A stretch of DNA of 64,000 bases from contig JAHIPV010000013.1 of NCBI GenBank assembly GCA_018902845.1, positions 18,766 through 82,765 of the forward strand. Reading direction: 5' to 3'. The DNA is from Patescibacteria group bacterium (GTDB lineage: Bacteria; Patescibacteriota; Microgenomatia; UBA12405). Made by a program: the position numbers and the translations under genes. Under the pieces are notes generated by a model that worked only from the letters and a program-made list of their open reading frames with translations, made no database searches and had not been told where the DNA came from. Positions 282-61,780 of this stretch are shown piece after piece. How positions within the stretch are numbered: position 1 is the first letter of the stretch; every line of letters starts with the position of its first letter.

Positions 282-385
282 TAAATTAATTTTTTTCTGT
301 GTTATACTACTCCCATACTATTAAGTCAGTTTTTGTGGGCGCCACCCCACAGCCTTATGTCATTCTGAACGAAGTGAAGAATCTA

Positions 386-3103: not shown

Positions 3104-3154
3104 GTCATCCCGAGCGTAGTCCTTTTGTCATCCCGAGCGTAGCCGAGGGATCTC
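3104..3154. repeat. Dispersed repeat family A, two tandem copies (gtcatcccgagcgtag.. x2) plus hairpin ctcgc-gaat-gcgag
   Basis: gtcatcccgagcgtagtccttttgtcatcccgagcgtagccgagggatctc; same core as copies at 359, 42227, 46392, 49318, 50457, 53293, 54450. Confidence 0.7.
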
Positions 3155-15033: not shown

Positions 15034-15194
15034 ACCTATAACATCATTATAATACAAATCGAACAGCAGCTCAAGCACTGGCTAGATTTGTTTTGTTTTA
15101 GATACTTTTTTGTCTCTCGTAATAATATAGCAGGATTATTTGGAAGTTTAGATATTAGATTTCAAATCTACTTACAATGTTGTATTCTTAATTA

Positions 15195-39097: not shown

Positions 39098-39117
39098 CAA
39101 TTATTTATAAATTATTT

Positions 39118-39149
39118 GGAAATTTAGATTTTAAATTTTAGATTTAATT
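39118..39149. repeat. Dispersed repeat family B copy 1 (ggaaatttagattttaaattttagatttaatt), ends 3 nt before rpsC ATG
   Basis: Near-identical copies at 41999, 49410, 59613. Confidence 0.7.
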
Positions 39150-39152
39150 AAT

Positions 39153-41438: not shown

Positions 41439-41990
41439 ATGCTAAAACAACAATTTAAACAAAAAATTCAAAAAGAACTTTGGCAAAAGTTAAACAAAGG
41501 CAATATTAATGCCGTACCCATGCTTCAAAAAGTAGTCATTAATTGTCGAGTACAGGGAGCCAAAGAAAATAAAGAAATTCTTGAGCTGGCGGGAGTCGAA
41601 TTAATGGCCCTAACAGGGCAAAAACCAAAACTTTGTTGTGCCAAAAAATCAGAGGCCAGTTTCAAATTAAGAGAGGGCGACCCCTTAGCACTCAAAATTA
41701 CATTGCGAAGTGGCAAAATGTATGATTTTGTCGAAAAATTATTCAACCTGGTTTTACCAAGATTAAGGGATTTTCGTGGCTTATCGGCCAATTCATTTGA
41801 CAATGGGGCCAATTACAATCTTGTTATAAAAGATCAAACATATTTTCCTGAAATTAACCTTGACAAAGTTAAGCAAATTAGATCGGTTCAGGTGACCCTC
41901 GTTACCAGCACCTCTTCAAAAGAGGAGGCAAAAATGTTATTATCCGCCCTAGGCTTACCATTTAAAAAAGAAGACAAAGAAAGTAATTAA
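41439..41990 (+). CDS. rplE: 50S ribosomal protein L5
   Basis: ..RLRDFRGLSANSFDNGANYNLVIKDQTYFPEI.. L5 signature. Confidence 0.93.
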   Translation: MLKQQFKQKIQKELWQKLNKGNINAVPMLQKVVINCRVQGAKENKEILELAGVELMALTGQKPKLCCAKKSEASFKLREGDPLALKITLRSGKMYDFVEKLFNLVLPRLRDFRGLSANSFDNGANYNLVIKDQTYFPEINLDKVKQIRSVQVTLVTSTSSKEEAKMLLSALGLPFKKEDKESN

Positions 41991-41998
41991 TTTTATTT

Positions 41999-42029
41999 GG
42001 AAATTTAGATTTTAAATTTGTGATTTATC
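41999..42029. repeat. Dispersed repeat family B copy 2, ends 3 nt before rpsN ATG
   Basis: ggaaatttagattttaaatttgtgatttatc. Confidence 0.7.
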
Positions 42030-42032
42030 AAT

Positions 42033-42218
42033 ATGGCCAATAAAGCAAAAATAGCAAGAGAAAATAAAAAACTAAGGTTTAAAACCCGTTACCATAACAG
42101 ATGTTCCTTGTGTGGCAGACCTCGTGGTTTTATCAGATTTTTTGGTCTTTGTAGACTATGTTTTCGTGAATTAGTTCACAAGAGCTTATTACCTGGAGTC
42201 AAAAAATCCAGCTGGTAA
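42033..42218 (+). CDS. rpsN: 30S ribosomal protein S14 type Z (zinc-binding)
   Basis: 61 aa, CSLCGR...CRLCFRE C4 motif. Confidence 0.93.
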
Positions 42219-42226
42219 CAAAATCC

Positions 42227-42262
42227 GTCATCCTGAGCTTGCCGAAGGATCCCGTCGGAATT
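42227..42262. repeat. Dispersed repeat family A copy (cgtcatcctgagcttgccgaaggatcccgtcggaatt), followed by an (AAAAATT)n tract at 42262-42300
   Basis: Nearly identical to the copy embedded in the 3' end of rplM (50457-50484). Confidence 0.7.
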
Positions 42263-42305
42263 ATAAAAAAATTAAAAAATTAAAAAATTAAAAATTAAAT
42301 AAAAT

Positions 42306-42695
42306 ATGCACAGTAGTCCAATATTAGATTTTTTGGTTAGAATAAAAAATGCCTATGCAGTAGGCAAAAAAACTATTAAATCTCCTTCGTCTAAAACCAG
42401 AGAATCGATTGCAAAGTTGATGGTCAAACACTCTTATCTGGATAATTTTAGTGTCGAAGGTAAAACCAAAAAAATCATTACTCTAAAACTTTCTTATAAC
42501 GACAAAGAACCAAGTTTTACTAATTTAAAAATTTTTTCTAAACCTGGTCGAAGAATTTATTCGCCGGTCAGTTCCCTGCCTTGGGGAAAAACTAAAAATT
42601 CATTAATTATAGTTTCTACTTCAACAGGGATTATCTCTCACAAGGAAGCAAAGAAACAAAACGTCGGTGGTGAAATTATCGCCGAAATCTGGTAA
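42306..42695 (+). CDS. rpsH: 30S ribosomal protein S8
   Basis: Position and S8-like sequence (..LDFLVRIKNAYAVGKK.., GGEIIAEIW end). Confidence 0.9.
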   Translation: MHSSPILDFLVRIKNAYAVGKKTIKSPSSKTRESIAKLMVKHSYLDNFSVEGKTKKIITLKLSYNDKEPSFTNLKIFSKPGRRIYSPVSSLPWGKTKNSLIIVSTSTGIISHKEAKKQNVGGEIIAEIW

Positions 42696-42700
42696 AAAAT

Positions 42701-43240
42701 ATGTCAAAAATTGGAAAACAGCCAATACTAATACCAAAAGAAGTCACCGTTTCTATTGGTAAAACTTCGGTTACAGTTAAAGGCCCCAAAGGGGAGCTTT
42801 TTTTGGATATTCCTCATAAAATAAAAATAAAATTAGTTGATGACCAAATAATTGTTGAACGTTTGTCCGAAGAGAAAAAAGTAAAATCGCTTCACGGCAC
42901 CATCCGCTCTTTGATAAAAAATATGGTCAAGGGAGTCACTGAACTTTGGAAAAAAGAATTAGAAATTCGTGGCACTGGTTACAGAGCTACGGTTTCCGGT
43001 TCGAAGCTTATCGTAAATGCCGGTTTCATCAATCCCGTAGAAGTTGATATACCCACAGGTATCAATATTGATGTCCAGAAAGAAACAGAAATCACAATTT
43101 CTGGTTATGATAAAATACTGGTCGGACAAATTGCCAGCAATATTAGAAAAATAAGAAAACCAGAACCATACAAAGGCAAAGGTATTCGATACAAGGATGA
43201 ATATATCAAACTTAAACCAGGCAAAACCGCCAAAGCATAA
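42701..43240 (+). CDS. rplF: 50S ribosomal protein L6
   Basis: MSKIGKQPI.IPK.V.V... two-domain L6 pattern. Confidence 0.92.
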   Translation: MSKIGKQPILIPKEVTVSIGKTSVTVKGPKGELFLDIPHKIKIKLVDDQIIVERLSEEKKVKSLHGTIRSLIKNMVKGVTELWKKELEIRGTGYRATVSGSKLIVNAGFINPVEVDIPTGINIDVQKETEITISGYDKILVGQIASNIRKIRKPEPYKGKGIRYKDEYIKLKPGKTAKA

Positions 43241-43243
43241 AAA

Positions 43244-43591
43244 ATGATTAAAAAAAACCCAAAATATCAAAGGCAAAAAAGAGTCAGAAATAAACTTCTC
43301 TCTGTTGGCAAGGGGCTATTCCGACTTTCTGTTTTTAGATCAAACAAACATATATTGGCCCAAATAATTGACGATAAACACGGTAAAACTCTTGTTTTTT
43401 TCAGTTCACAAAAACTTAAAAACAGCAAAATTAACAAAATTGAACAGGCTAAATTGGTTGGAGAAAAAATTGCTCTACTTGCACTCAAAAAAAATATCAA
43501 AAAAATCAAATTTGACCGTGGTTGTTACAAATATCACGGTCGTGTTAAAGCATTGGCAGATGCCACCAGGCAGGGTGGTTTAATTTTTTAA
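43244..43591 (+). CDS. rplR: 50S ribosomal protein L18
   Basis: ..[18 protein letters not shown].., C-terminal ..[15 protein letters not shown]. Confidence 0.9.
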
Positions 43592-43592
43592 T

Positions 43593-44048
43593 ATGAATAA
43601 TCGGTATCAAAACAAAAAAGACTCAGAATTTCAAGAAAAAGTAGTCCAAATTAAAAGAGTCTCAAAAAAAACCAAAGGGGGAAACCAAATTTCCTTTACG
43701 GCTCTGGTAGTTTCTGGCGATAAAAAATCCAGAGTAGGAGTTGCTCTTGGCAAAGCAAAAAATGTGGCCGACGCAATCAAAAAAGGAGTTCAAAAAGCCC
43801 AAAAAAACCTAATCAACGTAGAAATTGTCGATGGAACCATTCCTCATCAGATCAAATTTAAATTTAAATCCGCAGTGGTTTTGATCAAGCCGGGTAGAAA
43901 AGGAGGCGGTCTTATTGCTGGCGGTCCTGTCAGAGCCGTACTTGAATTAGCCGGCATCAAGGATGTTGCTTCAAAAATAATCCGTTCCAAAAACAAATCT
44001 GTTAACGTTTGGGCCGTTTTCAAAGCCTTATCCAAATTAAAATCATGA
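43593..44048 (+). CDS. rpsE: 30S ribosomal protein S5
   Basis: ..VVQIKRVSKKTKGGNQISFTALVVSGD.., ..GGGLIAGGPVRAVLELAGIKDV. Confidence 0.93.
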   Translation: MNNRYQNKKDSEFQEKVVQIKRVSKKTKGGNQISFTALVVSGDKKSRVGVALGKAKNVADAIKKGVQKAQKNLINVEIVDGTIPHQIKFKFKSAVVLIKPGRKGGGLIAGGPVRAVLELAGIKDVASKIIRSKNKSVNVWAVFKALSKLKS

Positions 44049-44506
44049 AAAGTATATTAAGCAAATTATCAAAAACCACTACCAAATCAAAAAAAAGAAT
44101 TGGCCGCGGTTATGGTTCAAAAAAAGGGGGCCACACTACTATCCGTGGTGCCAAAGGTCGCAAAGCCAGGGGAAAGGTCAAGTTAACTTTTGATGGTACC
44201 AAAATCAAAAAAGGCTGGATAAAAAGATTACCATTTTTAAGAGGCAAAGGTAGATTAAAGGGCTTACAGAAAAGGACAACCATTTTTAGTCTAGAGCAAT
44301 TACACAAATGGTTTAAAGACGGAGACTTAATTGATATCAAAGCCCTAAGTCAGGCTTCAAAAATCCCGGAATCAATATTAAGAAAAACCGGCGTTAAGAT
44401 TCTTTCTTCAAAAGAAAAAATCACCAAATCTTTTGTCTTTAAGGAGATTTCTTTTTCCAAAACAGCCAAAGATCAATTGGTAAAAACTGGTGCTAAGATA
44501 AATTAA
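44045..44506 (+). CDS. rplO: 50S ribosomal protein L15
   Basis: ..[23 protein letters not shown].. Start ATG 44045 overlaps the rpsE stop (ATGA). No rpmD (L30) gene between rpsE and rplO. Confidence 0.9.
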
Positions 44507-45786
44507 TGAAAAAAAAGAATAAACTTCTATCTCTTTATTTACAAAGTTTTCAGGTTCCTAACTTACGAAACAGGTTGCTAATTACCATCGTCCTCCTTAT
44601 ACTTTTCCGATTTATAGCCCACATTCCGGTTCCGGGTATAAATCTGGAACTTTTAAAAAGTTTTTTCTCATCTAACCAACTGCTTTCTCTGTTAGATATT
44701 TTTTCCGGCGGTACCCTGGCAAATTTTTCTATTGTTGCTCTTGGTTTAGGACCTTACATAAACGCTTCGGTCATGTTCCAGCTCTTTGCCCTAGTTATTC
44801 CAAAAATAGAAGAGTTAAGCAAAGAAGGGGAATATGGACGGGCCAAAATTAACCAATACACCCGCATTATCACTATTCCTTTGGCCATAGTTCAGGCTAT
44901 TGGTATGTATGGTATCTTGCGTTCGCAAAACATAATAGGCACCTTGTCCCCTCTCCTTTTAGTTGCTCTCATTGCCAGCATGCTTTGCGGTACCATGATT
45001 ATGATTTTTTTGGGTGAATTGATTGATACCTACGGTGTCGGCAATGGCACTTCTATGATTATTTTTGCCGGTATTATCGCTCGTTTGCCGATTAATTTCT
45101 TTCAAACGGCCAATATTACGGATTTTTCTAACCCCCAAAATATTTTAAATTTATCAATTTTTCTCTTATTGATCACGGTTTTAGTGGGAGGGGTGGTTTT
45201 TGTAGAGGAAGCTGTTTTACGCATTCCGGTTCATTATGCCAGAAGAGCCCAATCTACTTTTCTGCCCATAAAAATAAATAGTACCGGAGTCATGCCCATA
45301 ATTTTTGCCATGTCCCTAGCCTCAGCTCCTTCCTTAATCGGTCAATTTTTAAGCAAAGCTCCTCAGCCACAGCTTGCTTCTTTTGCCTCCAGTTTTTCCT
45401 CATTTTTTAATCCAAATAGCATTCCTTATTCTCTACTTTATTTTATATTTGTCATGTTTTTTACTTTTTTTTATTCATCAGTCGTTTTTAAGCCAAAAGA
45501 TATTGCCGAGGATCTCAGAAAATCTGGGGCTTTCATTCCGGGTATCCGTCCCGGTTCAGCCACTGAAAAAAGATTAACTTACCTTGTCAACCGCATAATG
45601 GTTGTAGGGGCTCTTTTTTTGGGATTGGTGGCTATTTTTCCGTCAATTCTCCAAAACATAACAAATATCAACACTCTAAATATAGGTGGAACCAGTATTT
45701 TAATTGTAGTTTCGGTTTTAATTGAGTTAACCAAAAAAATGGAAAACGCCGTCCAAACCTACAATTACGACAAATTTGTATTCTAA
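44506..45786 (+). CDS. secY: Preprotein translocase subunit SecY
   Basis: 426 aa, 10 TM segments, conserved SecY blocks. Confidence 0.93.
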
Positions 45787-45787
45787 T

Positions 45788-46384
45788 ATGCCACTAAATC
45801 TATTCATAATCGGTCCATCAGGCTGTGGAAAATCCACCCAGGCCCAAAAAATCGCCCAAAAATACAAACTAACCCATTTATCAATGGGTCAACTGTTGCG
45901 CGACGAAATAGCCAGCAACACAAAACTTGGTTTAGAAGCAAAAAAAACAGTTGATAATGGCGTTTGGACCCCGGCAGAAATTCTTTATCCAGTTTTAATT
46001 AATGCTTTAAACAAAATTAATAATCAAAACTTTATTTTAGACGGTTTTCCGCGAATAGTTGATCAAGCTGTTTTTGTCGATGCCCACCTAGACTCTCTTG
46101 GAAAATCATCGGATCTTTTGATCCATCTTAATGTTTCAATTGAAGAAATAATCAAAAGACGAAAATATTATGGTAAAAAATTCCAAAAGGCCGATAGAAA
46201 TGATAATACCGCAGAAGCTGTTATCCAAAGGCAAAAATCATATAACCAAACTATAAATCCAATACTTGAATATTTTCAACAGCAAAACAAGCTTTTTGAT
46301 ATCAACGGCAATCGCCCGGTAGATCCTATTTTTGCCGATATTTGCCAAAAAATCGATTTACTAATTAAAAAAAGTATTAAATAA
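45788..46384 (+). CDS. adk: Adenylate kinase (short LID, no zinc cysteines)
   Basis: IIGPSGCGKSTQAQKIA P-loop, ..GFPRIVDQA... ATG 45788 chosen; a TTG at 45776 is possible. Confidence 0.9.
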   Translation: MPLNLFIIGPSGCGKSTQAQKIAQKYKLTHLSMGQLLRDEIASNTKLGLEAKKTVDNGVWTPAEILYPVLINALNKINNQNFILDGFPRIVDQAVFVDAHLDSLGKSSDLLIHLNVSIEEIIKRRKYYGKKFQKADRNDNTAEAVIQRQKSYNQTINPILEYFQQQNKLFDINGNRPVDPIFADICQKIDLLIKKSIK

Positions 46385-46391
46385 CTATCTC

Positions 46392-46461
46392 GTCATTCTG
46401 AACAAAGTGAAGAATCCCAACGGGATCCTTCGTCCAATTGATCGGACTCAGGATGACGACA
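46392..46461. repeat. Dispersed repeat family A copy with inverted terminal half (gtcattctgaacaaagtgaagaatcccaacgggatccttcgtcc ... ggactcaggatgacgac)
   Basis: 5' half nearly identical to copy at 359-383. 3' end carries the reverse complement of the GTCATCCTGAG core. Confidence 0.7.
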
Positions 46462-46502
46462 TAAAAATAATCAAAAACAACTTATTAATAATTTATAAAA
46501 AT

Positions 46503-46715
46503 ATGACCAAAACAAAAGAACCACCTGTTACCGGAGTAGTTACAGAATGTTTACCCAGTACTCTTTTTAGGGTAAAATTAGAAGACGGCAAAGAGATTAT
46601 AGGTCATCTTGCCGGTAAATTACGAGTTCATCGTATTAGAATTATGGCCGGAGACAAGGTTTCTTTAATCATCAGTTCGGACGGTGATAAGGGTAGAATA
46701 GTCTACAGAAACTAG
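46503..46715 (+). CDS. infA: Translation initiation factor IF-1
   Basis: MTKTKEPPVTGVVTECLPSTLFRVKLEDGKEIIGHLAGKLR.. S1-like OB fold. Start at ATG 46503. Confidence 0.92.
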   Translation: MTKTKEPPVTGVVTECLPSTLFRVKLEDGKEIIGHLAGKLRVHRIRIMAGDKVSLIISSDGDKGRIVYRN

Positions 46716-46769
46716 TCCAAATTTTAATCTTTGATATTATCGCTTTTTTAGGGTACAATACTCAAGTCT

Positions 46770-46883
46770 ATGAAAGCTTCTTCAAGCGTTAAACGCAGAT
46801 GTCCTAAGTGTAAAATCGTAAAAAGGCGAGGGGTGGTGCATGTTATTTGTGAAACCAAAAGACATAAACAAAAACAAGGATAG
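46770..46883 (+). CDS. rpmJ: 50S ribosomal protein L36
   Basis: [37 protein letters not shown] (37 aa, C-x2-C...C..H zinc ribbon). Not in the ORF track because it is shorter than 60 aa. Confidence 0.85.
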
Positions 46884-46888
46884 GTAAA

Positions 46889-47293
46889 ATGAGAATTTCC
46901 GGAATAAACATACCAGATCACGAGAGAGTAGAAATAGCCTTCACCAGGTTTTTCGGCATTGGTAAAACATTGGTCAAGCAATTATTGCAAAAAAGCAAAA
47001 TTGACCCCGACAAAAGAACAAAAGATCTTTCCCGGGAAGAAGTTAGCAATCTAATCAAAGCTCTTGAATCCTTTAAAACAGAAGGGGATTTAAGAAGGGA
47101 GATAAGAGAAGATATCAAAAGATTAAAGGCTATTAAATCTTACAGAGGTATCAGGCATATTGTCGATCTTCCTGTCCGTGGACAGCGTACAAAAACTAAT
47201 GCCAGAACCAGAAAAGGCAAGAGAAAAACTGTCGGTTCACTTAGCAAGGAAGCCTGGGCAAAGCTTGATTCAACTCAATCAAGAAAACCTTAA
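46889..47293 (+). CDS. rpsM: 30S ribosomal protein S13
   Basis: MRISGINIPDHERVEIAFTRFFGIGK.., ..YRGIRHIVDLPVRGQRTKTNARTRKG. Confidence 0.95.
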   Translation: MRISGINIPDHERVEIAFTRFFGIGKTLVKQLLQKSKIDPDKRTKDLSREEVSNLIKALESFKTEGDLRREIREDIKRLKAIKSYRGIRHIVDLPVRGQRTKTNARTRKGKRKTVGSLSKEAWAKLDSTQSRKP

Positions 47294-47309
47294 ATAATTT
47301 TTCTAAAAA

Positions 47310-47705
47310 ATGATAACCAAAAAAACTAAAAATAAAAAAAGGAAGGAATATAAAAATATTGCTCATGCCAAGCTTTATATTAAATCTTCTTTTAACAACA
47401 CCATAGTAAACATTACGGATGAAAAGGGTAACACTATTTGTTGGGCTAGTTCTGGCAGTGTTGGTTTTAGCGGGGCCCGCAAATCAACTCCATACGCTGC
47501 CACCAGGGCAATTGAATCGGTATTGTCGGAAGGACAAAAATATGGAATAAAAAAATTATCGGTTTATATTAGGGGTCCAGGTGTTGGGCGAGATGCCGCC
47601 TTGCGTCTTCTTCGAGGCAAAAGGGATCTTGACATTGACAAAATCTCAGATCTTACACCAATCCCTCACAATGGCCCCAAACCTTCTAAAAGGAGAAGAA
47701 CCTAA
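47310..47705 (+). CDS. rpsK: 30S ribosomal protein S11
   Basis: ..IAHAKLYIKSSFNNTIVNITDEKGNTICWASSG.., ..IRGPGVGRDAALRLL. Confidence 0.95.
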   Translation: MITKKTKNKKRKEYKNIAHAKLYIKSSFNNTIVNITDEKGNTICWASSGSVGFSGARKSTPYAATRAIESVLSEGQKYGIKKLSVYIRGPGVGRDAALRLLRGKRDLDIDKISDLTPIPHNGPKPSKRRRT

Positions 47706-47711
47706 CAAAAA

Positions 47712-48344
47712 ATGGCAAGAGATACATTACATATAAAATGCAAGCTATGTCGCAGGGAAGGCACTAAATTGCACCTCAAGGGTACTCGCTGTTTGTCAGC
47801 CAAGTGCCCCATTGAAAAAAAAGGTGCCGTTCCTCCGGGCATGCATGGCCTAAAAAGATCTCGTCGCCCCAGCGCTTATGGTATTCAATTACGTGCCAAA
47901 CAAAAATTAAAAAGAATTTACGGGATTCTGGAAACCCAGCTAAAAAATTATTACAAAAAAGCCAAGCGTCTAAAAGGTATTTTAGGTGATAATCTGCTTG
48001 TTCTTCTGGAAACAAGATTGGACAATATCGTCTATGTTTCCGGTTTGGCACATTCCAGATCTCACTCAAGGCAAATTATTAGCCATCGGCATGTTTTAGT
48101 TAATGGTAAGATACTAAACATCTCTTCTTATTCGGTCAAAATTGGAGACAAAATTTCCATTGACAAAAAAACCGCCAAAAAGAAAGATATAAAACCAAGG
48201 GCTGTTGAGAAAGATTTTAAATGCCCCGACTGGCTTTCGCTTGATAAAACAAAACTTGAGGTTAAATTTATTTCTAAACCAACTAGAGATCAAATTTCCC
48301 AAGATATAGATGAAAATTTAATTATTGAATATTATTCAAGATAA
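47712..48344 (+). CDS. rpsD: 30S ribosomal protein S4 (zinc-finger type N-terminus)
   Basis: CKLCRREGTKLHLKGTRCLSAKC, S4 RNA-binding domain. Confidence 0.93.
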   Translation: MARDTLHIKCKLCRREGTKLHLKGTRCLSAKCPIEKKGAVPPGMHGLKRSRRPSAYGIQLRAKQKLKRIYGILETQLKNYYKKAKRLKGILGDNLLVLLETRLDNIVYVSGLAHSRSHSRQIISHRHVLVNGKILNISSYSVKIGDKISIDKKTAKKKDIKPRAVEKDFKCPDWLSLDKTKLEVKFISKPTRDQISQDIDENLIIEYYSR

Positions 48345-48355
48345 AGGAGAAACAA

Positions 48356-49276
48356 ATGATTGATACAAGCAAATTTAATATGAAAACGGTTAAACTGGAC
48401 GCAAAGTATGGGAAATTCCAACTAAGTCCTCTCTACAAGGGTTTTGGCCACACCATAGGCAATAGCATTAGGAGAATACTTCTAATCACCATTCCCGGCA
48501 GTGCTATTACCAAAATTAAAGTCGCGGGTGCCAATCATCTTTTTACTACTCTAGATGGAATAAAAGAAGATTTGGTTGACATTTCCCTTAACCTCAAAAA
48601 AATCAAGTTCATATATAACAAAAACGAACCAACGGTACTCAAATTATCAAAAAGCGGTAAGTCTATTGTCACCGCCGCAGATATAGCTGATACTGATACT
48701 TGTAAAGTTTCCAACCCAGAACAGCATATTGCCACTCTAACAAATTCAAAAGCCAGTTTAGACATTGAGCTGACTGTTGAAAGAGGCATTGGTTTTACTC
48801 TTGCCAAAGAGCAAGAAAGTGAAATCGTAGGAGAAATTATCCTGGATGCTACCTTTACTCCGGTTTTAAGGTCCAACTATTCGGTTGAGTCAATTCGCTT
48901 AGGCAAAAAAAATGATTTTGACAAACTGACCATGGAAATATGGACTGATGGTTCTATAGACCCAAAGGAAGCGCTTAAAAGAGCCACCAAGGACCTAATC
49001 GTTTCCCTGTCTCAAATCGTTGACCCAAAAGAGTTTGAGGAAGAAGAAATTGTTACCATCGGATCTAATTTAAACATCTTCAACACTGATGTGTCGGTAG
49101 AAGAAATAGAATTACCACTAAGAGTAACTAATGCCTTGAAAAAGGCTGGTTTCCAAACCGTAGAAAGCCTAATACAAAATGGCAGTTCTGAAGTTAAAAA
49201 AGCCAAAAATGTAGGAGAAAAATCAATCAAAACCATTAATGATTGGCTCAAAGAAAAAGGAGTCGATTGGAAGTAA
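48356..49276 (+). CDS. rpoA: DNA-directed RNA polymerase subunit alpha
   Basis: N-terminal dimerisation domain and alpha-CTD (IEELELPLRVTNALKKAGFQTVESL). Confidence 0.93.
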   Translation: MIDTSKFNMKTVKLDAKYGKFQLSPLYKGFGHTIGNSIRRILLITIPGSAITKIKVAGANHLFTTLDGIKEDLVDISLNLKKIKFIYNKNEPTVLKLSKSGKSIVTAADIADTDTCKVSNPEQHIATLTNSKASLDIELTVERGIGFTLAKEQESEIVGEIILDATFTPVLRSNYSVESIRLGKKNDFDKLTMEIWTDGSIDPKEALKRATKDLIVSLSQIVDPKEFEEEEIVTIGSNLNIFNTDVSVEEIELPLRVTNALKKAGFQTVESLIQNGSSEVKKAKNVGEKSIKTINDWLKEKGVDWK

Positions 49277-49317
49277 CTTCTATAACTCATCAAAGTGAGA
49301 TTCAGTTAGAAAACACC

Positions 49318-49356
49318 CGTCATCCCGAGCGCGGTCGAGGGATCCCGTGGGGAATT
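49318..49356. repeat. Dispersed repeat family A copy (cgtcatcccgagcgcggtcgagggatcccgtggggaatt), followed by AT-heptamer tract and a family-B copy
   Basis: Composite 167-bp rpoA-rplQ spacer. Confidence 0.7.
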
Positions 49357-49409
49357 GTAAAAATTTATTAAAAATTAAAAATTAGAGATTAAAAAAGTTT
49401 AAAAATTTT

Positions 49410-49441
49410 GGAAATTTAGATTTTAAATTTTGAATTTAATT
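49410..49441. repeat. Dispersed repeat family B copy 3, ends 2 nt before rplQ ATG
   Basis: ggaaatttagattttaaattttgaatttaatt. Confidence 0.7.
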
Positions 49442-49443
49442 AT

Positions 49444-50028
49444 ATGCGTCATCGAAAATTCGGCAAAAAACTAGGAAGAAATCATCATCAACGAAAAGCT
49501 TTACTCAAAAGTTTGGTTAGGGCTGTTTTTACTCATGGTAGTATTAATACCACCATGGCAAAGGCAGAGGCAGTCTCTCCCTTAATAGAAAAAATCTGCA
49601 CTAGAATAAAAAAAGCAGACTTAAGTAGCAAAAGATATCTATATAGATATCTTCAGGACAGAAAATGGGTAAAAATAGTTGAGGAAGCTTTTTTAAAAGT
49701 TTTTCCGGACAGAAATTCAAATTTCCTAAAAATTTCTAAAGTTAAAAAAAGACAAGGAGACGATGCCACAATAGTTAACTTAGCTTTTGTCAAAACTGTT
49801 TCTTTTAATGTAGGGGAGACCCTTGCGGTCGCCCGCAAAAAAACAAAAGAAAGCTTAAGTTCAAAAAATTTATTAGGGCTCAAAAACAAGCTAAAGCGCA
49901 GTTCGTTTCAGGCAAAACAAAAGCAACAATCGTCTGTAGGAACAACTTTTGCAGTCGCTCGCAAAAATATAAAAATGAAAAAGAAAACAAGTCAGAGCGA
50001 ACTTACTCGAAGGGGAAAATCTAAATGA
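49444..50028 (+). CDS. rplQ: 50S ribosomal protein L17 with 76-aa C-terminal extension built from two copies of repeat family C
   Basis: L17 core in aa 1-118 (MRHRKFGKKLGRNHHQRKALLKSLV..). Extension contains in-frame gtaggggagacccttgcggtcgcccgcaaaaaaac (49810-49844) and gtaggaacaacttttgcagtcgctcgcaaaaatataaaaatg (49936-49977). Confidence 0.88.
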   Translation: MRHRKFGKKLGRNHHQRKALLKSLVRAVFTHGSINTTMAKAEAVSPLIEKICTRIKKADLSSKRYLYRYLQDRKWVKIVEEAFLKVFPDRNSNFLKISKVKKRQGDDATIVNLAFVKTVSFNVGETLAVARKKTKESLSSKNLLGLKNKLKRSSFQAKQKQQSSVGTTFAVARKNIKMKKKTSQSELTRRGKSK

Positions 50029-50492
50029 AAAAGATAACAACCATAAAACCAATAAAAGACATCAAAAGATATTGGCATTTCATCGACCTAGAAGGCCAAA
50101 CTCTTGGTCGCATTAGCACAAAAATTGCCAAACTTTTAACCGGAAAGGATAAGGTCCAATTTTGTTATCATCACGATTGGGGAGATTATGTCATCGCTGT
50201 TAATTCTAATAAAATAAAAACTACAGGTAAAAAGCTAAAAGACAAAATTTATTATCGTCATTCTGGTTACGCTGGCAATTTAAAAGAAATTCAATTAAAA
50301 GACTTGATGAAAAAAGATTCCAGAAAAGTTATTTATGCATCGGTTTATGGAATGGTAGCCAAAAACAAATTACGAAAACCAAGAATGCGAAGATTAAAAA
50401 TCTTTAAAACCGCAGATCATCCTTATCAAGGCAAGCTTAAAGGTTTATCTCCCAAGCGTCATCCTGAGCTTGCCGAAGGATCACAAAAATAA
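50025..50492 (+). CDS. rplM: 50S ribosomal protein L13 with C-terminal tail encoded by a repeat-A copy
   Basis: L13 core (..YWHFIDLEGQTLGRISTKIAKLL.GK..). Last 12 codons (KRHPELAEGSQK) are the in-frame repeat cgtcatcctgagcttgccgaaggatcac at 50457-50484. Confidence 0.9.
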   Translation: MKKITTIKPIKDIKRYWHFIDLEGQTLGRISTKIAKLLTGKDKVQFCYHHDWGDYVIAVNSNKIKTTGKKLKDKIYYRHSGYAGNLKEIQLKDLMKKDSRKVIYASVYGMVAKNKLRKPRMRRLKIFKTADHPYQGKLKGLSPKRHPELAEGSQK

Positions 50493-50495
50493 TTT

Positions 50496-50888
50496 ATGAA
50501 AAAATACATATACGCAATCGGCAGACGTCGTAGTGCGATTGTAACTGTCAAGCTTTTTAAAGGAAAAGAAGAATCTCTAGTTAATAATATTTCTGTATCG
50601 AAATATTTTCCATCTCCACACCAAAAGATTAAGTATCAAAAACCTTTTGTTTTAACCAGCCTTTTGGGTAAGTATTTTTTTCAAGCTAAAGCTTCTGGAG
50701 GTGGCAAGGAAGGCCAATTAGACGCCCTAGCCCTAGCCATTTCAAGGGCTTTAGAACGACAGAACCCAGATCTTCGCGATCCTTTAAAAAAAGCCAAGCT
50801 GTTAAGAGTAGATTCTCGTATCCGTCAGCGTCGTCGGGTTGGTAAAGGTGGCAAAGCTCGTCGTGGCAAACAATCCCCAAGAAGATAA
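50496..50888 (+). CDS. rpsI: 30S ribosomal protein S9
   Basis: ..YIYAIGRRRSAIVTVKL.., C-terminal ..GKGGKARRGKQSPRR. Confidence 0.93.
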   Translation: MKKYIYAIGRRRSAIVTVKLFKGKEESLVNNISVSKYFPSPHQKIKYQKPFVLTSLLGKYFFQAKASGGGKEGQLDALALAISRALERQNPDLRDPLKKAKLLRVDSRIRQRRRVGKGGKARRGKQSPRR

Positions 50889-50906
50889 AAATGTTATCCT
50901 AAGCAA

Positions 50907-51653
50907 ATGTTGTGGTATCAATCTCTTATCCTTGCCCTTATCCAGGCCATCACTGAATTTCTTCCGGTCTCCTCTTCTGGTCATCTTGCTATAGCCCAAG
51001 AGCTTTTTGGTTCTACACCTTCGCTTTCTTTCGATATTTTTCTTAACACGGCCACTCTTTTTTCTGTTATATTTTTTTTCAAAAAACAATCCAAGGATTT
51101 TTTAAACAAATTAGTTTTTATTTTTTTAAGCTCTATTCCTGCTGTTCTGGTAACTCTTATTTTCAAAGATCAGATTAGCTCTCTCTTTTCTCAAACCACA
51201 TATCTCACCGCCTCTTTTCTCGTTACAAGTCTTTTGCTTTTTTCAGTCAAATTAATCAAAAAAAGGAAACAAACTTTTCTTACTCCCCAAAAAGCCATAA
51301 TAATTGGTCTTTTTCAATCGTTGGCTATTTTTCCTGGTATTTCCCGTTCTGCTTCTACAATTTTTGCCGGTCTTCTTTGTGGACTTGGCAGTCAAAAAGC
51401 CTTTGAATATTCTTTTTACTTATTCATTCCCGCTTCGCTGGGCGCTCTTGTGTTTGGAGTTACGCAAACAGATCTTGCATCGTTGTCTTTTTCCTCCTAC
51501 CTTCCTTACGCCATAATTTGCTTTCTGGTTGGTTTAATTTCCCTCAAACTCTTAAAAAAAACAATTCAATCCAAAAAACTTTGGTATTTTAGCTTTTATA
51601 CCTTAGCACTCTCCTGTCTTACCATCTATTTTTCCTACCACCAATCTTTTTAA
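50907..51653 (+). CDS. uppP: Undecaprenyl-diphosphate phosphatase (UppP/BacA)
   Basis: ..ALIQAITEFLPVSSSGHL.. N-terminal motif, 8 TM segments, ..PGISRSASTI.. second motif. Confidence 0.9.
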   Translation: MLWYQSLILALIQAITEFLPVSSSGHLAIAQELFGSTPSLSFDIFLNTATLFSVIFFFKKQSKDFLNKLVFIFLSSIPAVLVTLIFKDQISSLFSQTTYLTASFLVTSLLLFSVKLIKKRKQTFLTPQKAIIIGLFQSLAIFPGISRSASTIFAGLLCGLGSQKAFEYSFYLFIPASLGALVFGVTQTDLASLSFSSYLPYAIICFLVGLISLKLLKKTIQSKKLWYFSFYTLALSCLTIYFSYHQSF

Positions 51654-51820
51654 ATCTTCCATTGCCTCTGCAAGTATCATTCTTTCTTCAAGTTCTCTGT
51701 TTAGTTTATTCATAAAAACCACCTGCTCCACTCTCTTTATCTGCTTAATTCTGCCCAGTCCTGTATTTCTTATCATAGATAAATTATTCTACCACTTCCC
51801 ACACTAACCCTCAAATCTAT

Positions 51821-53263
51821 TTATAATGTGTTTACTGCCCTTTCCAGTCTTTTAATCGTTTTGTCTCTTCCTAAAATCGGTAAACATTCTACAATTGGCG
51901 GTGTAATTTTTTGTCCGCTCAAAGCCACTCTAAACACCATAAAATACTGTCCCGTATTCCAATTATTTTTTTTAATCAACTCCAGTAGTTTATTTTGAAT
52001 ATTGACAACATCATCCCAATTCTTAGTTTCTTTTAATAATTCTGTTGTCTTATCCATCATTTCTGTTACCAGCTCTTTTGTTGCCCCTCTTTGCAACAGC
52101 ATTTCCTTATCATATTTAATCTCTTCAAACAAAAACTTAGTTAATTCAACTGCGTCAGACAACCTAGTGATTCTTTCTTTTAGCAGGGGAGCCAGATATA
52201 ACAATATTTCATCATCAACTTTTGGTAAAAAAGTTTTCAACAATTTTGCTAATTCTTTATCGCTTTTTTTCTGAATGTAATGTTTATTAAAATAATCAAG
52301 TTTTTTTCTATCAAAAGCAGGCGCTTTTTTGTGTAATCTTTCCAAACTAAACTCTTCGATAAACTCATCCAGGCTAAAAAATTCTCTTTCGTCTCCGGGA
52401 TTCCATCCCAAAAGCATCAAAAAATTGAGCAAGGCTTCGGGTAAATATCCATCATTTAAAAAATTTCGGGCAGACCAAGATCCGTGTCTTTTAGATATTT
52501 TCCCTCTCCTTTCTGGGTCCATCAAATCAGTTAGATGCGCAAATACTGGTATATTCCAACCAAAACATTTATACAAAATTACCTGTTTCGGGGTTGAAGG
52601 TATCCAAGCCTGTCCTCTCATTATGTGGCTGATTTCCATTAAATGGTCATCAATTACCACGGCAAAATGGTAAGTGGGAATTCCATCAGATTTGATCAAC
52701 ACTTGATCATCTATATCTTTGCTTGGTACCGAAATTTTTCCTCTGATAAAATCCGTCCAAACAATTACCTCATTATCTGGAACTTTCATCCGGATTACAT
52801 ATTTTTCTCCTGCTTTTAATCTTTTTTCTACCTCACTTTTTGATAGTTGCAGGCACTTCCTGTCATATTTTGGTAATTTGCCATCGGCTTTCTGTGACTT
52901 TCTCATTTCATCCAATCTCTCTTCACTGCAAAAACAACAATAGGCAAAACCATTTTTTATCAATTGATCAGTATATTTTTTATAAATACCCAACCTCTCT
53001 GTTTGAATATAAGGACCATATTTGCCACCTTTCTTGGGTCCTTCGTCCCAGTCAAAGCCATAGTCTCTAATTACTTCAAACATTCTTTCTTGCGCTCCAG
53101 CAACAAGCCTTTTTCTGTCAGTATCCTCAATTCGAATAATAAACTGACCTTTGTTTTTTCTAGCAAAAGCATAGTTATAAAGAAGTGTTCTCATGTTCCC
53201 AATCTGATATTCTCCCGTTGGACTCGGCGCCATTCTGGTTCTGACTATTTTTTTACCACTCAT
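51821..53263 (-). CDS. gltX: Glutamyl-tRNA synthetase (class I), HIGH-box His replaced (PSPTGEYQIGN)
   Basis: RMAPSPTGEYQIGNMRTLLYNYAFARK.., KMSKS-like GKISKRHGS, C-terminal anticodon-binding helices. Confidence 0.9.
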   Translation of the reverse strand: MSGKKIVRTRMAPSPTGEYQIGNMRTLLYNYAFARKNKGQFIIRIEDTDRKRLVAGAQERMFEVIRDYGFDWDEGPKKGGKYGPYIQTERLGIYKKYTDQLIKNGFAYCCFCSEERLDEMRKSQKADGKLPKYDRKCLQLSKSEVEKRLKAGEKYVIRMKVPDNEVIVWTDFIRGKISVPSKDIDDQVLIKSDGIPTYHFAVVIDDHLMEISHIMRGQAWIPSTPKQVILYKCFGWNIPVFAHLTDLMDPERRGKISKRHGSWSARNFLNDGYLPEALLNFLMLLGWNPGDEREFFSLDEFIEEFSLERLHKKAPAFDRKKLDYFNKHYIQKKSDKELAKLLKTFLPKVDDEILLYLAPLLKERITRLSDAVELTKFLFEEIKYDKEMLLQRGATKELVTEMMDKTTELLKETKNWDDVVNIQNKLLELIKKNNWNTGQYFMVFRVALSGQKITPPIVECLPILGRDKTIKRLERAVNTL

Positions 53264-53292
53264 TTTACTATTTTATCATTATTTCTATCTAG

Positions 53293-53367
53293 CATCCTGA
53301 GTTTTCACCGTCATCCTGAGTGATCCGCCAACTGGCGGAGACCGAAGGATCCCGTCGGATTTTCCCC
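53293..53367. repeat. Repeat family A cluster (partial copy catcctgag + full copy with internal hairpin ccgcca-ac-tggcgg)
   Basis: agcatcctgagttttcaccgtcatcctgagtgatccgccaactggcggagaccgaaggatcccgtcgg. Confidence 0.7.
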
Positions 53368-53401
53368 CCAATAATCTTTTCTTTAGTTTATAATCAATTT
53401 A

Positions 53402-54442
53402 ATGTCCTTAACTCATACTGCCTACAGTACTAGAAAACTAATTAAATTTGGCGGACTAGGTATTATTCTTTTTTCTTTTGCCTGGTCTTTTCTTGTCACC
53501 GGAATCAAAGCTTATCGCAAGGCCCATCCGCCCAAGCTCCCTCCAACAGTTCGTTTTGGTAAACTGCCACCAATCACTTTTCCGTCAAAAAAAATAGAAA
53601 AGAAAGATTTTGTTTTAGAATTAGCTGATGATAAATTTTCAGAATTTCCCGATTCCGCTAAGGTTTATGTAGTCTATCGACCCACCAGTACTATCTTAGC
53701 TCTAGAAGAAGATACAAAAACAGCCAGAAGTCTTGGTTTTGTAACTCAGCCTATAAAAATTAACGACGGAGTTTACCAATTTCAAAACACTACTTTTAAA
53801 AAAACATTAACCATGAATATCTTAGATGGCAGTTTCAAGCTGGAATATCCATACAAAAAAGACCAAACCTTACAAGGTTCTGGAAAACTTCCCGACAAAA
53901 ACCAAGCCATTGATACGGCCAAAGCCTTTTTGAGAACAGCCGGAAAACTCGGTCCAGATCTTGAGACCGGAGAACAAACTATCACTTTTTGGAAAATAAG
54001 TTTTGATGGTCTTCATTCAGTTTTATCCCATTCAGAAGCCAATGCCATAAGAGTAGATTTTTTAAGAGAAAACCCAGAAAAAGATATGAAAATTTATTCC
54101 ACTAAGCCCGATAAGTCTTCAGTATCGGTCCTGGTCAGCAATTCAGCGGTTGAAAACAAAAGGATTATAGATGTTGATTACAAATATTCCCCGATTGATC
54201 GTGAATCTTTTTCTACTTACCCCATCAAATCGGCCATCCAGGCATGGGAAGAATTAAAAGCAGGTGATTATTGGCCGGCCATACAAGACTCTTCTGCCAC
54301 CGTCTCCATTCGCAATGTTAATTTGGCCTATTTTGAGCCCAGTAGTTTAACTAATTACATGCAACCAATCTTTGTATTTACTGGCGATAACGATTTTACC
54401 GCTTATGTTCCGGCTATATCTTCATCCTGGATTTCAGAATAA
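53402..54442 (+). CDS. Hypothetical membrane-anchored protein (346 aa, N-terminal TM, large extracytoplasmic region)
   Basis: Single N-terminal hydrophobic segment (LGIILFSFAWSFLV). No recognisable family. Confidence 0.55.
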   Translation: MSLTHTAYSTRKLIKFGGLGIILFSFAWSFLVTGIKAYRKAHPPKLPPTVRFGKLPPITFPSKKIEKKDFVLELADDKFSEFPDSAKVYVVYRPTSTILALEEDTKTARSLGFVTQPIKINDGVYQFQNTTFKKTLTMNILDGSFKLEYPYKKDQTLQGSGKLPDKNQAIDTAKAFLRTAGKLGPDLETGEQTITFWKISFDGLHSVLSHSEANAIRVDFLRENPEKDMKIYSTKPDKSSVSVLVSNSAVENKRIIDVDYKYSPIDRESFSTYPIKSAIQAWEELKAGDYWPAIQDSSATVSIRNVNLAYFEPSSLTNYMQPIFVFTGDNDFTAYVPAISSSWISE

Positions 54443-54449
54443 TCTATCT

Positions 54450-54588
54450 GTCATCCCGAGCGCAGTCGAGGGATCTCCCCGGAATTTAAACTTCCATTTG
54501 GGATTCTTCTCCGCCAACTGGCGGATCAGAATGACGCCTTTCTCCCACCCGTCATCCTGAGTGAGTTTTACGACCGAAGGATCCCATC
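54450..54588. repeat. Repeat family A cluster: forward copy, inverted half-copy (ggcggatcagaatgacgcc) and second forward copy, with ccgccaactggcgg hairpin
   Basis: gtcatcccgagcgcagtcgagggatctcc ... ccgccaactggcggatcagaatgacg ... cgtcatcctgagtgagttttacgaccgaaggatcccatc. Confidence 0.7.
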
Positions 54589-55501
54589 AATATTCTTCCC
54601 ACTCAATGTTCTTTTTCGCCCATTCAAGTAATTGCAAAGTATCCGCAAATCGATCCTCACTTTGCGCCACCACACTAATCAATCTGTGTCCTTCTATGTT
54701 TAACAATCCCGCAAAACATCCACCAGCCTCCGGTGTCCACCCGGTCTTCAGCCCTTCAACTTCTGGCACTGTTTCCAGTAATTCATTTGTATTAAGCAGT
54801 AAGTGTTCCGTGCCATTCCTGCTTGTTATTTTTAATTCTTTAATTTTTACTGTTTCTGTCACTGTTTTATTTTTAATTGCCAATCGTGCCACCTGAGCTA
54901 AATCATAAACAGTTGAATAGTGATTTTCGTCATGTATGCCGTCGTAATTAACAAAATTACTATCCTCTAATCCATTTTTTTTCAAAATTCCATTCATTTC
55001 TTTAACAAAACCATCCACTCCATTTTTGTGTTGTTTAGCCAAAACAAAAGCCGCATCATTGGCAGAATGAACCAACAAAGCCTTTACCAGATCTCTTATG
55101 CTTAATTTTTCTCCCACCTTAAGCTCCATTACCTTTCCATTTTCGTATTCTGTATCTATCTCTATAATTTCATCCAGGGGATAAATATTTAAAGCGGTTA
55201 GTGCTGTGATTAACTTTGTAGTGGAAGCCGGATAAATTCTTTCTTTTTCTTTTTTGCTTATCAAAATAGTATTTGTTTCTGTATCTAGGAGAATAAAAGC
55301 TTTAGCACTCAAAACAGGGGTAAAATTGGTTTTATTTTTTGTTACTGGTATTAATGGGTGTTGGTAATTGGCAAAGACGTTATTTTCTTTTCTTGTTTGT
55401 ATTGCCCTGCGGTCTAGATTAGAAACAATTAAATTAAACCACAAAAAAAATCCCAGTCCGCCTCCTAAAAAAATCAAAATCCTACTACGCTTTTTTCGCA
55501 T
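54587..55501 (-). CDS. D-alanyl-D-alanine carboxypeptidase (S11 family, PBP5/6-like)
   Basis: SxxK (ASTTK), SxN (HSANDAA), KTG (KTGWT) motifs, N-terminal TM. Confidence 0.85.
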   Translation of the reverse strand: MRKKRSRILIFLGGGLGFFLWFNLIVSNLDRRAIQTRKENNVFANYQHPLIPVTKNKTNFTPVLSAKAFILLDTETNTILISKKEKERIYPASTTKLITALTALNIYPLDEIIEIDTEYENGKVMELKVGEKLSIRDLVKALLVHSANDAAFVLAKQHKNGVDGFVKEMNGILKKNGLEDSNFVNYDGIHDENHYSTVYDLAQVARLAIKNKTVTETVKIKELKITSRNGTEHLLLNTNELLETVPEVEGLKTGWTPEAGGCFAGLLNIEGHRLISVVAQSEDRFADTLQLLEWAKKNIEWEEY

Positions 55502-59537: not shown

Positions 59538-59612
59538 TTACTCATTCTATCAACTTATGATTTTAAAATGTTTGTCAGTAATGACAATATTAAATAATTT
59601 TGGGTTTAATTT

Positions 59613-59643
59613 GGAAATTTAGATTTTTGATTTCAGATTTATC
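59613..59643. repeat. Dispersed repeat family B copy 4 in the recJ / RRM-gene divergent spacer
   Basis: ggaaatttagatttttgatttcagatttatc. Confidence 0.6.
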
Positions 59644-59819
59644 TTCTCATTGCTTTTCCTTTTCGTTCTGTTATACTTAACCCCAGAACTCAGATACATA
59701 GTTATTTTAACTGGGTTCTGTTATAAGGATTCATTTTTAAACTGTAGTATCAAGAAATTTCCTTTTTTGTTTCTCTGTTATTTTGCGTCCTTAATTTATA
59801 AGTTCAAAAGTAAAAAAAA

Positions 59820-61725: not shown

Positions 61726-61739
61726 CTTGTAGGGGCGAC

Positions 61740-61780
61740 CCTTGCGATCGCCCGCAAAATATAAAAATGTCAAACAACAA
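61740..61780. repeat. Repeat family C copy 3, overlapping the ABC-transporter start codon
   Basis: tgtaggggcgacccttgcgatcgcccgcaaaatataaaaatg. Its 5' half matches 49810-49844 and its 3' half (caaaaatataaaaatg) matches 49962-49977, both inside rplQ. Confidence 0.7.

Follow-up and report, generated by a model that had tools for sequence, protein, structure and literature searches.

How does the end of a conserved ribosomal protein gene come to consist of a repeat that otherwise lies between genes? The question is raised by rplM, the gene of ribosomal protein uL13 (L13), in a 64,000-nucleotide (nt) stretch of DNA from a Patescibacteria group bacterium (assembly GCA_018902845.1, contig JAHIPV010000013.1, positions 18,766 to 82,765 of the forward strand). 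This whole stretch is called the window below, and coordinates are counted from its first letter. The repeat, Repeat-A, belongs to a family of palindromic units with about 11 copies in the 64 kb of the window, only one of which lies in a confirmed coding sequence. Comparison with relatives indicates that the rplM copy is an internal insertion of ten codons, made after the split from the closest sequenced relative (the sister species). We consider it likely that the locus is explained as a whole by in-frame insertion of a repeat, with the translated segment most likely being a neutral passenger.

The insertion at the 3' end of rplM

rplM occupies 50025..50492 on the plus strand, as judged from its open reading frame (ORF) and a match to Pfam PF00572. 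It encodes 155 amino acids including the insert, and its product ends in …ADHPYQGKLKGLSPKRHPELAEGSQK before the stop codon; a protein identical to it (P0001) carries the NCBI name L13. By its database matches, the organism belongs to the Patescibacteria (CPR) and is close to Candidatus Shapirobacteria. The insertion is the 30-nt segment AAGCGTCATCCTGAGCTTGCCGAAGGATCA at 50454..50483 (plus strand), which encodes KRHPELAEGS in frame and is missing in the sister loci L001 and L003; its boundaries are ambiguous by 1-2 nt. It directly follows codon 143 (Pro) and is itself followed by the native Gln-Lys-stop, CAA AAA TAA (50484..50492, plus strand), which is identical in the sister species. The next gene, rpsI (uS9; 50496..50888, plus strand; identified by ORF, alignment and Pfam S9 matches of its orthologues), starts 3 nt past the rplM stop, and this spacing (TAA-TTT-ATG) is the same with and without the insert. 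The initial annotation had described a 12-residue tail encoded by the element and a gene extended by it until the next stop. The alignment with the sister species corrects both points. Only the ten residues KRHPELAEGS are inserted, whereas Gln-Lys and the stop are native, and the gene was not extended, since it still has its ancestral stop, preceded by the original last two codons and followed by the 3-nt gap to rpsI.

Within the insert, positions 50457..50482 (plus strand) form the 26-nt repeat core CGTCATCCTGAGCTTGCCGAAGGATC. By exact pattern search, this core is found exactly twice in the window, here and at 42226-42251 in the rpsN-rpsH spacer. The identity between the two copies, originally given as 28 bp with the spacer copy at 42227-42253, is thus real but shorter: it covers 26 nt, and the 28-mers agree in 27 of 28 positions (A in rplM, C in the spacer). 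No match to CGTCATCCTGAGCTTGCCGAAGGATC was obtained in 100 dinucleotide-preserving shuffles of the window, even with up to 3 mismatches allowed, and no second copy would be expected by chance. In the core hairpin (50461..50481, plus strand), the arms ATCCT (50461-65) and AGGAT (50477-81) form a stem that encloses the cap GAGCTTGCCGA and is supported by covariation in the family. The rplM stop follows the hairpin at a distance of 8 nt, and the rpsI start at 14 nt. The rplM copy consists of this core hairpin only and is devoid of the CCCGTCGGAAT continuation of the intergenic copies of this genome, in which CCCGTCGGAAT pairs with the 5' flank to give an outer helix. The repeat unit can be translated without a stop in two sense frames (RHPELAEGS and VILSLPKD); the third meets TGA.

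Gain of the insert after the species split

The L13 protein of the sister species (P0002) is 87% identical to that of the window over the aligned part and ends in …KGLSPQK. In the DNA alignment, both sister loci have a clean gap of 30 nt at 50454-50483 with colinear flanks on either side: …GGTTTATCTCCT is directly joined to CAAAAATAATTTATG in the sister species, whereas the window reads …GGTTTATCTCCC, then AAGCGTCATCCTGAGCTTGCCGAAGGATCA, then the same CAAAAATAATTTATG. The earlier proposal that an intergenic repeat had been built into rplM in frame is borne out by this gap of exactly 30 nt. While the 26-nt core is 100% identical to its second copy in the window, the rplM DNA around the insert differs between the two species.

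The insert is also missing in the next relatives, P0003 and P0004 (75% and 74% identity), whose C-termini are …KGLSASDDKELK (…GLSASDDKELK) and …KGLFPKQD. Among 120 listed L13 homologues, the tail past the H-x-[HY] motif is usually 8-15 residues long; that of the window protein has 24 residues, or 14 without the insert. Repeat-derived tails are found elsewhere among these homologues in only one distant clade, which is treated below. P0101, which ends in …SEGSQK, was considered as a carrier of the same tail and rejected; unrelated DNA encodes this ending, and the resemblance is thus a coincidence. An alignment of related L13 proteins, which had been suggested as a check on the tail, accordingly finds it missing in the sister species, P0003, P0004 and the other listed homologues bar one independent clade. 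The next relatives and the typical tail lengths thus mark the insertion as a gain in the window lineage.

The junction recurs in independent samples. A total of 19 contigs encode the identical 155-aa L13 protein. The seven loci retrieved come from as many samples, spread over three source collections (Logan, JGI, ENA), and the repeat core is at the same distance from the rplM end in 7/7. In two aligned loci among the seven, the rplM junction is base-identical to the window, and the insert is present in all examined contigs of the species. Because seven loci from seven samples share the position of the repeat core, the initial concern about a misassembly is answered.

The insert does not interrupt the protein fold. 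Pfam PF00572 matches residues 16-133 of L13 (profile positions 2-119 of 119, E=1e-40), and this full-length domain match, together with the conserved rplM-rpsI gene pair, identifies the protein as uL13. Solved bacterial uL13 chains (142 aa) align to residues 5-136. As about 8 further residues remain in those chains, the canonical protein end is expected at residue 144-145 or so, which is where this protein would end if the insert were removed. The AlphaFold2 model, computed from a 26-sequence alignment, has a mean predicted local distance difference test score (pLDDT) of 85.6, with residues 145-155 below 50. Domain match, solved chains and model all support the earlier statement that the L13 fold is complete before the repeat. 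KRHPELAEGS is predicted by the model to be disordered, and would form a tail exposed on the ribosome.

Structure of the Repeat-A family

The family consensus of about 25 nt consists of GTCAT, three variable bases, a GAG-loop-CGA cap, three complementary bases and ATC(C). Among the variable bases there is covariation (CCT/AGG, CCC/GGG, TCT/AGA, TCC/GGA, TGC/GCA and CGC/GCG), and all three variable pairs are Watson-Crick in 207/228 units from many genomes. In a set of 38 distinct 25-mers, 94.7% of the cells pair, and the covariation score is 0.274 compared with 0.133±0.016 in shuffled sets (0/500 as high). In predicted folding energy, the copies are no different from shuffles (z -1.7 to +1.1), and the support for the stem thus comes from covariation. 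GAG-CGNAG-CGA is the most frequent cap; it would accommodate two tandem G·A pairs together with two Watson-Crick pairs and a triloop. The head GTCAT is invariant in the 38 distinct units, but the pattern used for their selection itself began with GTCAT; the second L13 clade has GTCAC.

Several readings as a functional RNA were tried. The hairpins are not intrinsic terminators: they are followed by A-rich sequence instead of a U-tract, and plus strand copies were not called by a terminator scan. Judged from the sequence, a hammerhead reading of CUGAG…CGAAG fails in topology and core, and a K-turn reading lacks the 3-nt bulge. Across phyla, the orientation relative to neighbouring ORFs is unbiased (12 sense and 11 antisense singlets, by a crude ORF proxy), and there is no excess of G·U over C·A mismatches (T·G 8 vs C·A 11) and hence no RNA-strand signal. 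Due to this lack of a strand-specific mismatch or orientation signal, a DNA-level element is weakly favoured over a dedicated cis-acting RNA.

With Rfam 15, no unit was matched in the whole window at the gathering threshold, in 41500-55000 at E<=10, or in 15 loci of other phyla. Annotated collections gave ten weak plasmid matches, none of them annotated as a repeat, and zero phage matches. Literature searches with the exact DNA cores and the encoded peptides returned only unrelated primer coincidences and no description of the family, and a search on palindromic intergenic repeats in the Candidate Phyla Radiation (CPR) returned nothing relevant.

Copies in the window, persistent sites and turnover of cores

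Family copies in the window are located at 359, 3104/3127, 42227, 46392(+)/46457(-), 49319, 50458, 53293/53310, 54450 and 54551; every unit but one is on the plus strand. When placed against genes, most of them start 2-45 nt past a stop codon (pnp, rpsN, adk, rpoA and an ORF ending at 54442). Full intergenic copies of this genome have an outer helix YCCG…CGGR, which the rplM copy lacks. In the full copy past the rpsN stop codon at 42216-42218 (42224..42262, plus strand), this helix is formed by TCCG (42224-27) and CGGA (42256-59). Its core at 42226-42251, the same as in rplM, begins 8 nt past the stop of rpsN (S14), upstream of rpsH. A copy with a CCC/GGG stem is found in the rpoA-rplQ spacer (49319..49344, plus strand) and one with a TCT/AGA stem at 359..383 (plus strand). 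A partial and a full copy follow directly past the pnp stop at 3102 (3104..3152, plus strand), and another such pair (53293..53351, plus strand) lies between gltX, which is on the minus strand, and an ORF at 53402; the 53310 copy has an enlarged loop containing a nested hairpin. Past the stop at 54442, a cluster at 54450..54583 (plus strand) comprises copies at 54450-54475 and 54551-54583 and, in the interval, a reverse half-arm. The adk-infA spacer, whose flanking genes were identified by Pfam, holds an inverted doublet (46392..46457) made up of a plus unit at 46392-46416 and a minus unit ending at 46457. The longest ORF of infA (46407-46715, GTG start, 102 aa) overlaps this doublet; the IF-1 domain covers residues 41-101 only, and translation probably begins at an internal codon that lies downstream of the repeat.

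In the sister species, family members are present at the orthologous rpoA-rplQ, gltX-upstream and rpsN-rpsH spacers, in different variants. At rpoA-rplQ, a TGC/GCA + CGC inverted doublet in the sister stands against a CCC/GGG singlet in the window, and at rpsN-rpsH the sister has GTCA-CCCCGCCAGGGCGGGG-TCCCGCCGGAATT where the window has GTCA-TCCTGAGCTTGCCGAAGGA-TCCCGTCGGAATT. rplM is the only compared site that is filled in one species and empty in the other. Since the orthologous sister spacer has another core, both exact CTTGC-loop copies of the window are younger than the species split. An order in which the 42226 copy is older than the rplM copy could not be demonstrated; the sister spacer has a GTCA…TCCCGYCGGAATT frame with another hairpin core. 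When sister locus L194 (830-880) is compared with window positions 42219-42265, the spacer frame GTCA…TCCCG(C/T)CGGAATTATAAAAAA is kept and the hairpin is wholly different (CCCCGCCAGGGCGGGG vs TCCTGAGCTTGCCGAAGGA), and it looks as if hairpin cores had been swapped inside a conserved frame. Past rpsH, the sister species has a bare palindrome, AATTCCGTCGGAATT.

Distribution of the family

A degenerate pattern of the unit matched at least 120 stretches in species-representative genomes. The family is found across more than ten phyla; the matches include Acidobacteriota, Chloroflexota, Verrucomicrobiota, Patescibacteria, Bacteroidota, Bacillota, Proteobacteria, Nitrospirota, Gemmatimonadota and Melainabacteria. 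There are 55 metagenome stretches with the exact 26-mer; their GC content is 0.39-0.64, and none of them is homologous to the window or comes from its species. Inverted doublets with units 30-60 nt apart and no target-site duplication are often found in other phyla (L033, L045, L091, L068 and L085), and doublets also occur in spacers of the sister species as well as at 46392-46457 in the window. In two metagenome stretches with a GC content of 0.64 (L147 4790-4950 and L158 6320-6480), the units form head-to-tail arrays with a 24-nt period (…CGTCATCCTGAGCTTGCCGAAGGATCTCATCCTGAGCCTGCCGAAGGC…), one frame of which would translate to an 8-residue repeat resembling VILSLPKD. On the Dehalococcoidia chromosome OZ244885.1 (L014 6247-7141), a stretch of 900 nt holds seven units that alternate in orientation and recur about every 330 nt, which is a higher-order cluster of doublets.

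Relation to known repeats

Repeat-A behaves like a non-autonomous element of the repetitive extragenic palindromic (REP) or REPIN type, because its copies lie downstream of stop codons, occur as singlets and inverted doublets without target-site duplication, and have a covarying stem. REP and REPIN elements are imperfect palindromes of small size, whose many copies are mostly extragenic and close to the ends of genes, present as singlets or as inverted doublets with a short spacer and no target-site duplication (for the definition including inverted doublets see PMC3116915), and the Repeat-A family shares these features; the rplM copy itself is a singlet, not a doublet. A REP that flanks the REP-associated tyrosine transposase (RAYT) gene npun_F5543 of Nostoc punctiforme, gttgggttgaggaacgaaacccaac (PMC3116915 supplement), shares with Repeat-A the GAG..CGA cap enclosed by the stem arms, and this likeness may be a lead to the enzyme that mobilises Repeat-A. 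There are also differences. REPs are usually species- or genus-specific, whereas Repeat-A, including the exact 26-mer, recurs across phyla. The head of Repeat-A is GTCA[T/C] and not GT[AG]G, the REP head that Nunvar reportedly described in 2010.

In-frame capture of repeats by genes is known from other systems. Rickettsia palindromic elements (RPEs) insert in frame into protein-coding genes at positions where this is tolerated (reviewed in PMC10969869). The rplM case resembles them as a palindromic non-autonomous repeat in a coding sequence that keeps the frame, adds a peptide and is missing in close relatives. However, RPEs are about 100-150 bp long, have a conserved peptide and form Rickettsia-specific families, whereas the rplM insertion is 30 nt long, belongs to a family of many phyla with an unrelated consensus, and sits in a CPR host at the extreme 3' end of a ribosomal gene. 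Intragenic repeats of the ERIC/BOX type can likewise give translational fusions (PMC10969869). These and other miniature transposable elements with inverted repeats (MITEs) thus also produce in-frame fusions via a small intragenic repeat, but MITEs have terminal inverted repeats and target-site duplications. A MITE was rejected here: the rplM copy is a single 26-nt hairpin, and no duplication is found at the rplM junction or at the doublets of other genomes. Lineage-specific extensions of ribosomal proteins are similarly C-terminal segments outside the domain, as in uL13 and bL17; in rplM the segment can be traced to a repeat copy and is younger than the species split. The rplM event is therefore akin to a known kind, with in-frame RPE insertion as the closest phenomenon and REP/REPIN as the closest element type. 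It is a member of neither, because size and families do not fit an RPE, and the head and the breadth across species do not fit a REP.

Repeat-derived sequence in other genes

A second L13 clade (P0086, P0089, P0096, P0108, P0111, P0112 and P0118), about 45% identical to the window L13, also has a repeat-derived tail. Its C-termini, with the string …FRHPERSEG…, read …AQISFRHPERSEGLGMTENEESKILPKGR or a variant. In the DNA, a collapsed or complete inverted doublet of the Repeat-A family is read through together with the former spacer; the doublet of P0096, GTCATTCTGAGCGAAGTGAAAGGCTCAGAATGAC, has perfect 12-bp arms. The former spacer contains a purine-rich, Shine-Dalgarno-like stretch just before rpsI, and translation stops at a TGA 6 nt ahead of the rpsI ATG. 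The protein with this tail has a constant length (162 aa), and the tail is in frame in at least six protein clusters. Judged from the sequences, the tail of this clade is an independent event rather than an ancestral feature of L13. The initial annotation had held that the same tail in distant L13 proteins would mean that it is not repeat-derived. A similar tail does exist in distant proteins, yet it arose by independent read-through of a doublet, and the criterion was thus unsound. For this clade, the description of a gene extended until the next stop does hold.

Directly upstream of rplM, rplQ (bL17; 49444..50028) has its Pfam domain at residues 20-116 of 194, followed by a C-terminal extension of 78 aa. 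This tail contains two copies of a second, GTAG-headed repeat (D2, GTAGGGGCGACC…) at 49809-49848 and 49935-49974. The pattern of the GTAG-type repeat is TGTAGGGG(A/C)GACCCTTGCG(G/A)TCGCCCGC, with an intergenic copy at 61728-61767. The second rplQ copy corresponds to a clean in-frame insertion of 33 nt (49941-49973, TTFAVARKNIK) that is missing in the sister species; where the first copy lies, the sister carries another segment, longer by 42 nt. On the Planktothrix agardhii plasmid NZ_LR882951.1 (L195 240-420), a cluster of units and half-units (GTCATCCTGAGTGAAACGAAGGATC … GATTCTTCGCAAGCTCAGAATGAC …) lies within the PglX coding sequence annotated by RefSeq, a 4.6-kb BREX methyltransferase gene, and is likely another in-frame capture.

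Explanation of the insertion and its alternatives

In the explanation that we prefer, the 26-nt core and 4 flanking bases would have been copied into the last codons of rplM after the species split. The source would be another genomic copy of the same variant, and the only other exact copy in the window is the one past rpsN. The insertion may have survived because the uL13 C-terminus is outside the fold, its length is a multiple of three and two of the three sense frames of the element are free of stops. It would also have landed in the tail and not in the 3-nt rplM-rpsI gap, so that termination-reinitiation coupling stays intact; an insertion into that gap would destroy the TAA-TTT-ATG coupling junction. 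On this account, KRHPELAEGS is most likely translated but disordered, a passenger that is neutral for function.

Several points weigh against this account. The neutrality of the peptide is something that we infer. At the rplM junction, the alignment to the sister species displays neither a target-site duplication nor clear microhomology, and the rplM copy is partial, without the outer helix of the full intergenic copies. As the exact 26-mer also occurs in unrelated organisms over a wide range of GC content, the identity of the two window copies is a weaker proof of recent intragenomic copying. The mobility claimed for the repeat from the outset is suggested by its presence and absence between species, but no transposition machinery was identified: there were zero Y1_Tnp/RAYT domain matches among 17 scanned window ORFs (64 kb of genome), and no gene family was enriched beside the units (1302 ORFs within 400 nt of a unit, clustered, from 175 loci). 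Finally, the maintenance of the second-clade tail in frame across at least six protein clusters could point to selection.

Three other explanations have to be compared with this one. Assemblers can be misled by short repeats, and the junction might be a chimeric join at a repeat, or the resemblance a matter of chance. With the same junction in seven loci from seven samples and three collections, both flanks colinear with the sister species and zero chance matches in 100 shuffles, an artefact or chance match is effectively refuted. The tail might also be ancestral to the group, with a loss of precisely 30 nt in the sister species, given that the polarity of an indel is not decidable from two species alone. 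However, P0003, P0004 and the other listed L13 proteins are without the segment, save for the one clade in which it has a separate origin; the core is still 100% identical to another genomic copy whereas the flanking rplM DNA has diverged between the species; and the family of the element is otherwise intergenic. We thus regard an ancestral tail as very improbable.

The strongest competitor is that the insert is functional, either through its RNA hairpin (in mRNA stability, processing or rplM-rpsI coupling) or through residues on the ribosome surface. Hairpins of E. coli REPs near stop codons reportedly modulate how the upstream gene is translated (Liang, Rudd and Deutscher, 2015), and most placed intergenic copies of Repeat-A are sense-oriented and lie 2-45 nt past a stop in operons, which is compatible with a role of the RNA. 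The insert is moreover fixed in all examined contigs of the species, and the distant L13 clade has kept its 162-aa protein with the repeat-derived tail in six clusters. Yet the copies fold no better than shuffles (z -1.7 to +1.1), cannot be intrinsic terminators for want of a U-tract, and exhibit neither an orientation bias (12 vs 11) nor an excess of G·U (8 vs 11). The sister species manages without the insert, and the tail is predicted to be disordered. A function of the insert is thus unlikely in our view, and in-frame insertion of a repeat whose translated segment is probably neutral is the explanation that we retain.

Other repeats in the window

A 43-nt repeat (TTTGGAAATTTAGATTTTAAATTT..) was found at 39108-39150, 41989-42031 and 49400-49442, and also at 15132-15174 and 59603-59645. 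In front of three genes (ATG at 39153, about 42033 and 49444), only 1-3 nt separate its end from the start codon. Its layout is TTGGAA, a gap of 17 nt and TAGATT/GTGATT/TGAATT, the last of these about 9 nt from the ATG. To judge by this layout, it could act as promoter of leaderless mRNAs within the ribosomal protein cluster; a simple sigma-70 scan did not call it. At the start of the window, upstream of pnp, positions 74-157 hold two tandem 42-nt units of 76% identity (GCCAGCCACAGTTCAACCAACAGCCACAGTTCCGGCCCAAAT and its neighbour; family D17).

Meaning of the captures

The rplM insertion is a dated case, resolved to the base, of a selfish hairpin repeat supplying new coding sequence to an essential, highly conserved ribosomal protein, here within a reduced CPR genome. 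Along with the bL17 insertion and the second uL13 clade, it offers a concrete, testable route to lineage-specific tails of ribosomal proteins. A broader reading, which we put forward tentatively and regard as open to considerable doubt, is that Repeat-A represents an undescribed pan-bacterial family of hairpins of about 25 nt in more than ten phyla, with no recognisable transposase, that is a recurrent source of ribosomal tails. This reading spans the tandem-G·A cap, the REPIN-like doublets, the capture by uL13 in two lineages and the capture of the GTAG-type repeat by bL17. If it is true, part of the lineage-specific tails of ribosomal proteins in Patescibacteria would be born from selfish hairpin DNA.

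For annotation, strings such as RHPE..EGS or VILS..AKD at the ends of proteins from metagenome-assembled genomes can be repeat-derived and should not be taken as conserved motifs. The analysis also brings to attention a very widespread hairpin family without an Rfam model. What it chiefly adds is the recurrence of captures in the tails of ribosomal proteins and the unexpected breadth of the family, which is undescribed as far as our searches tell.

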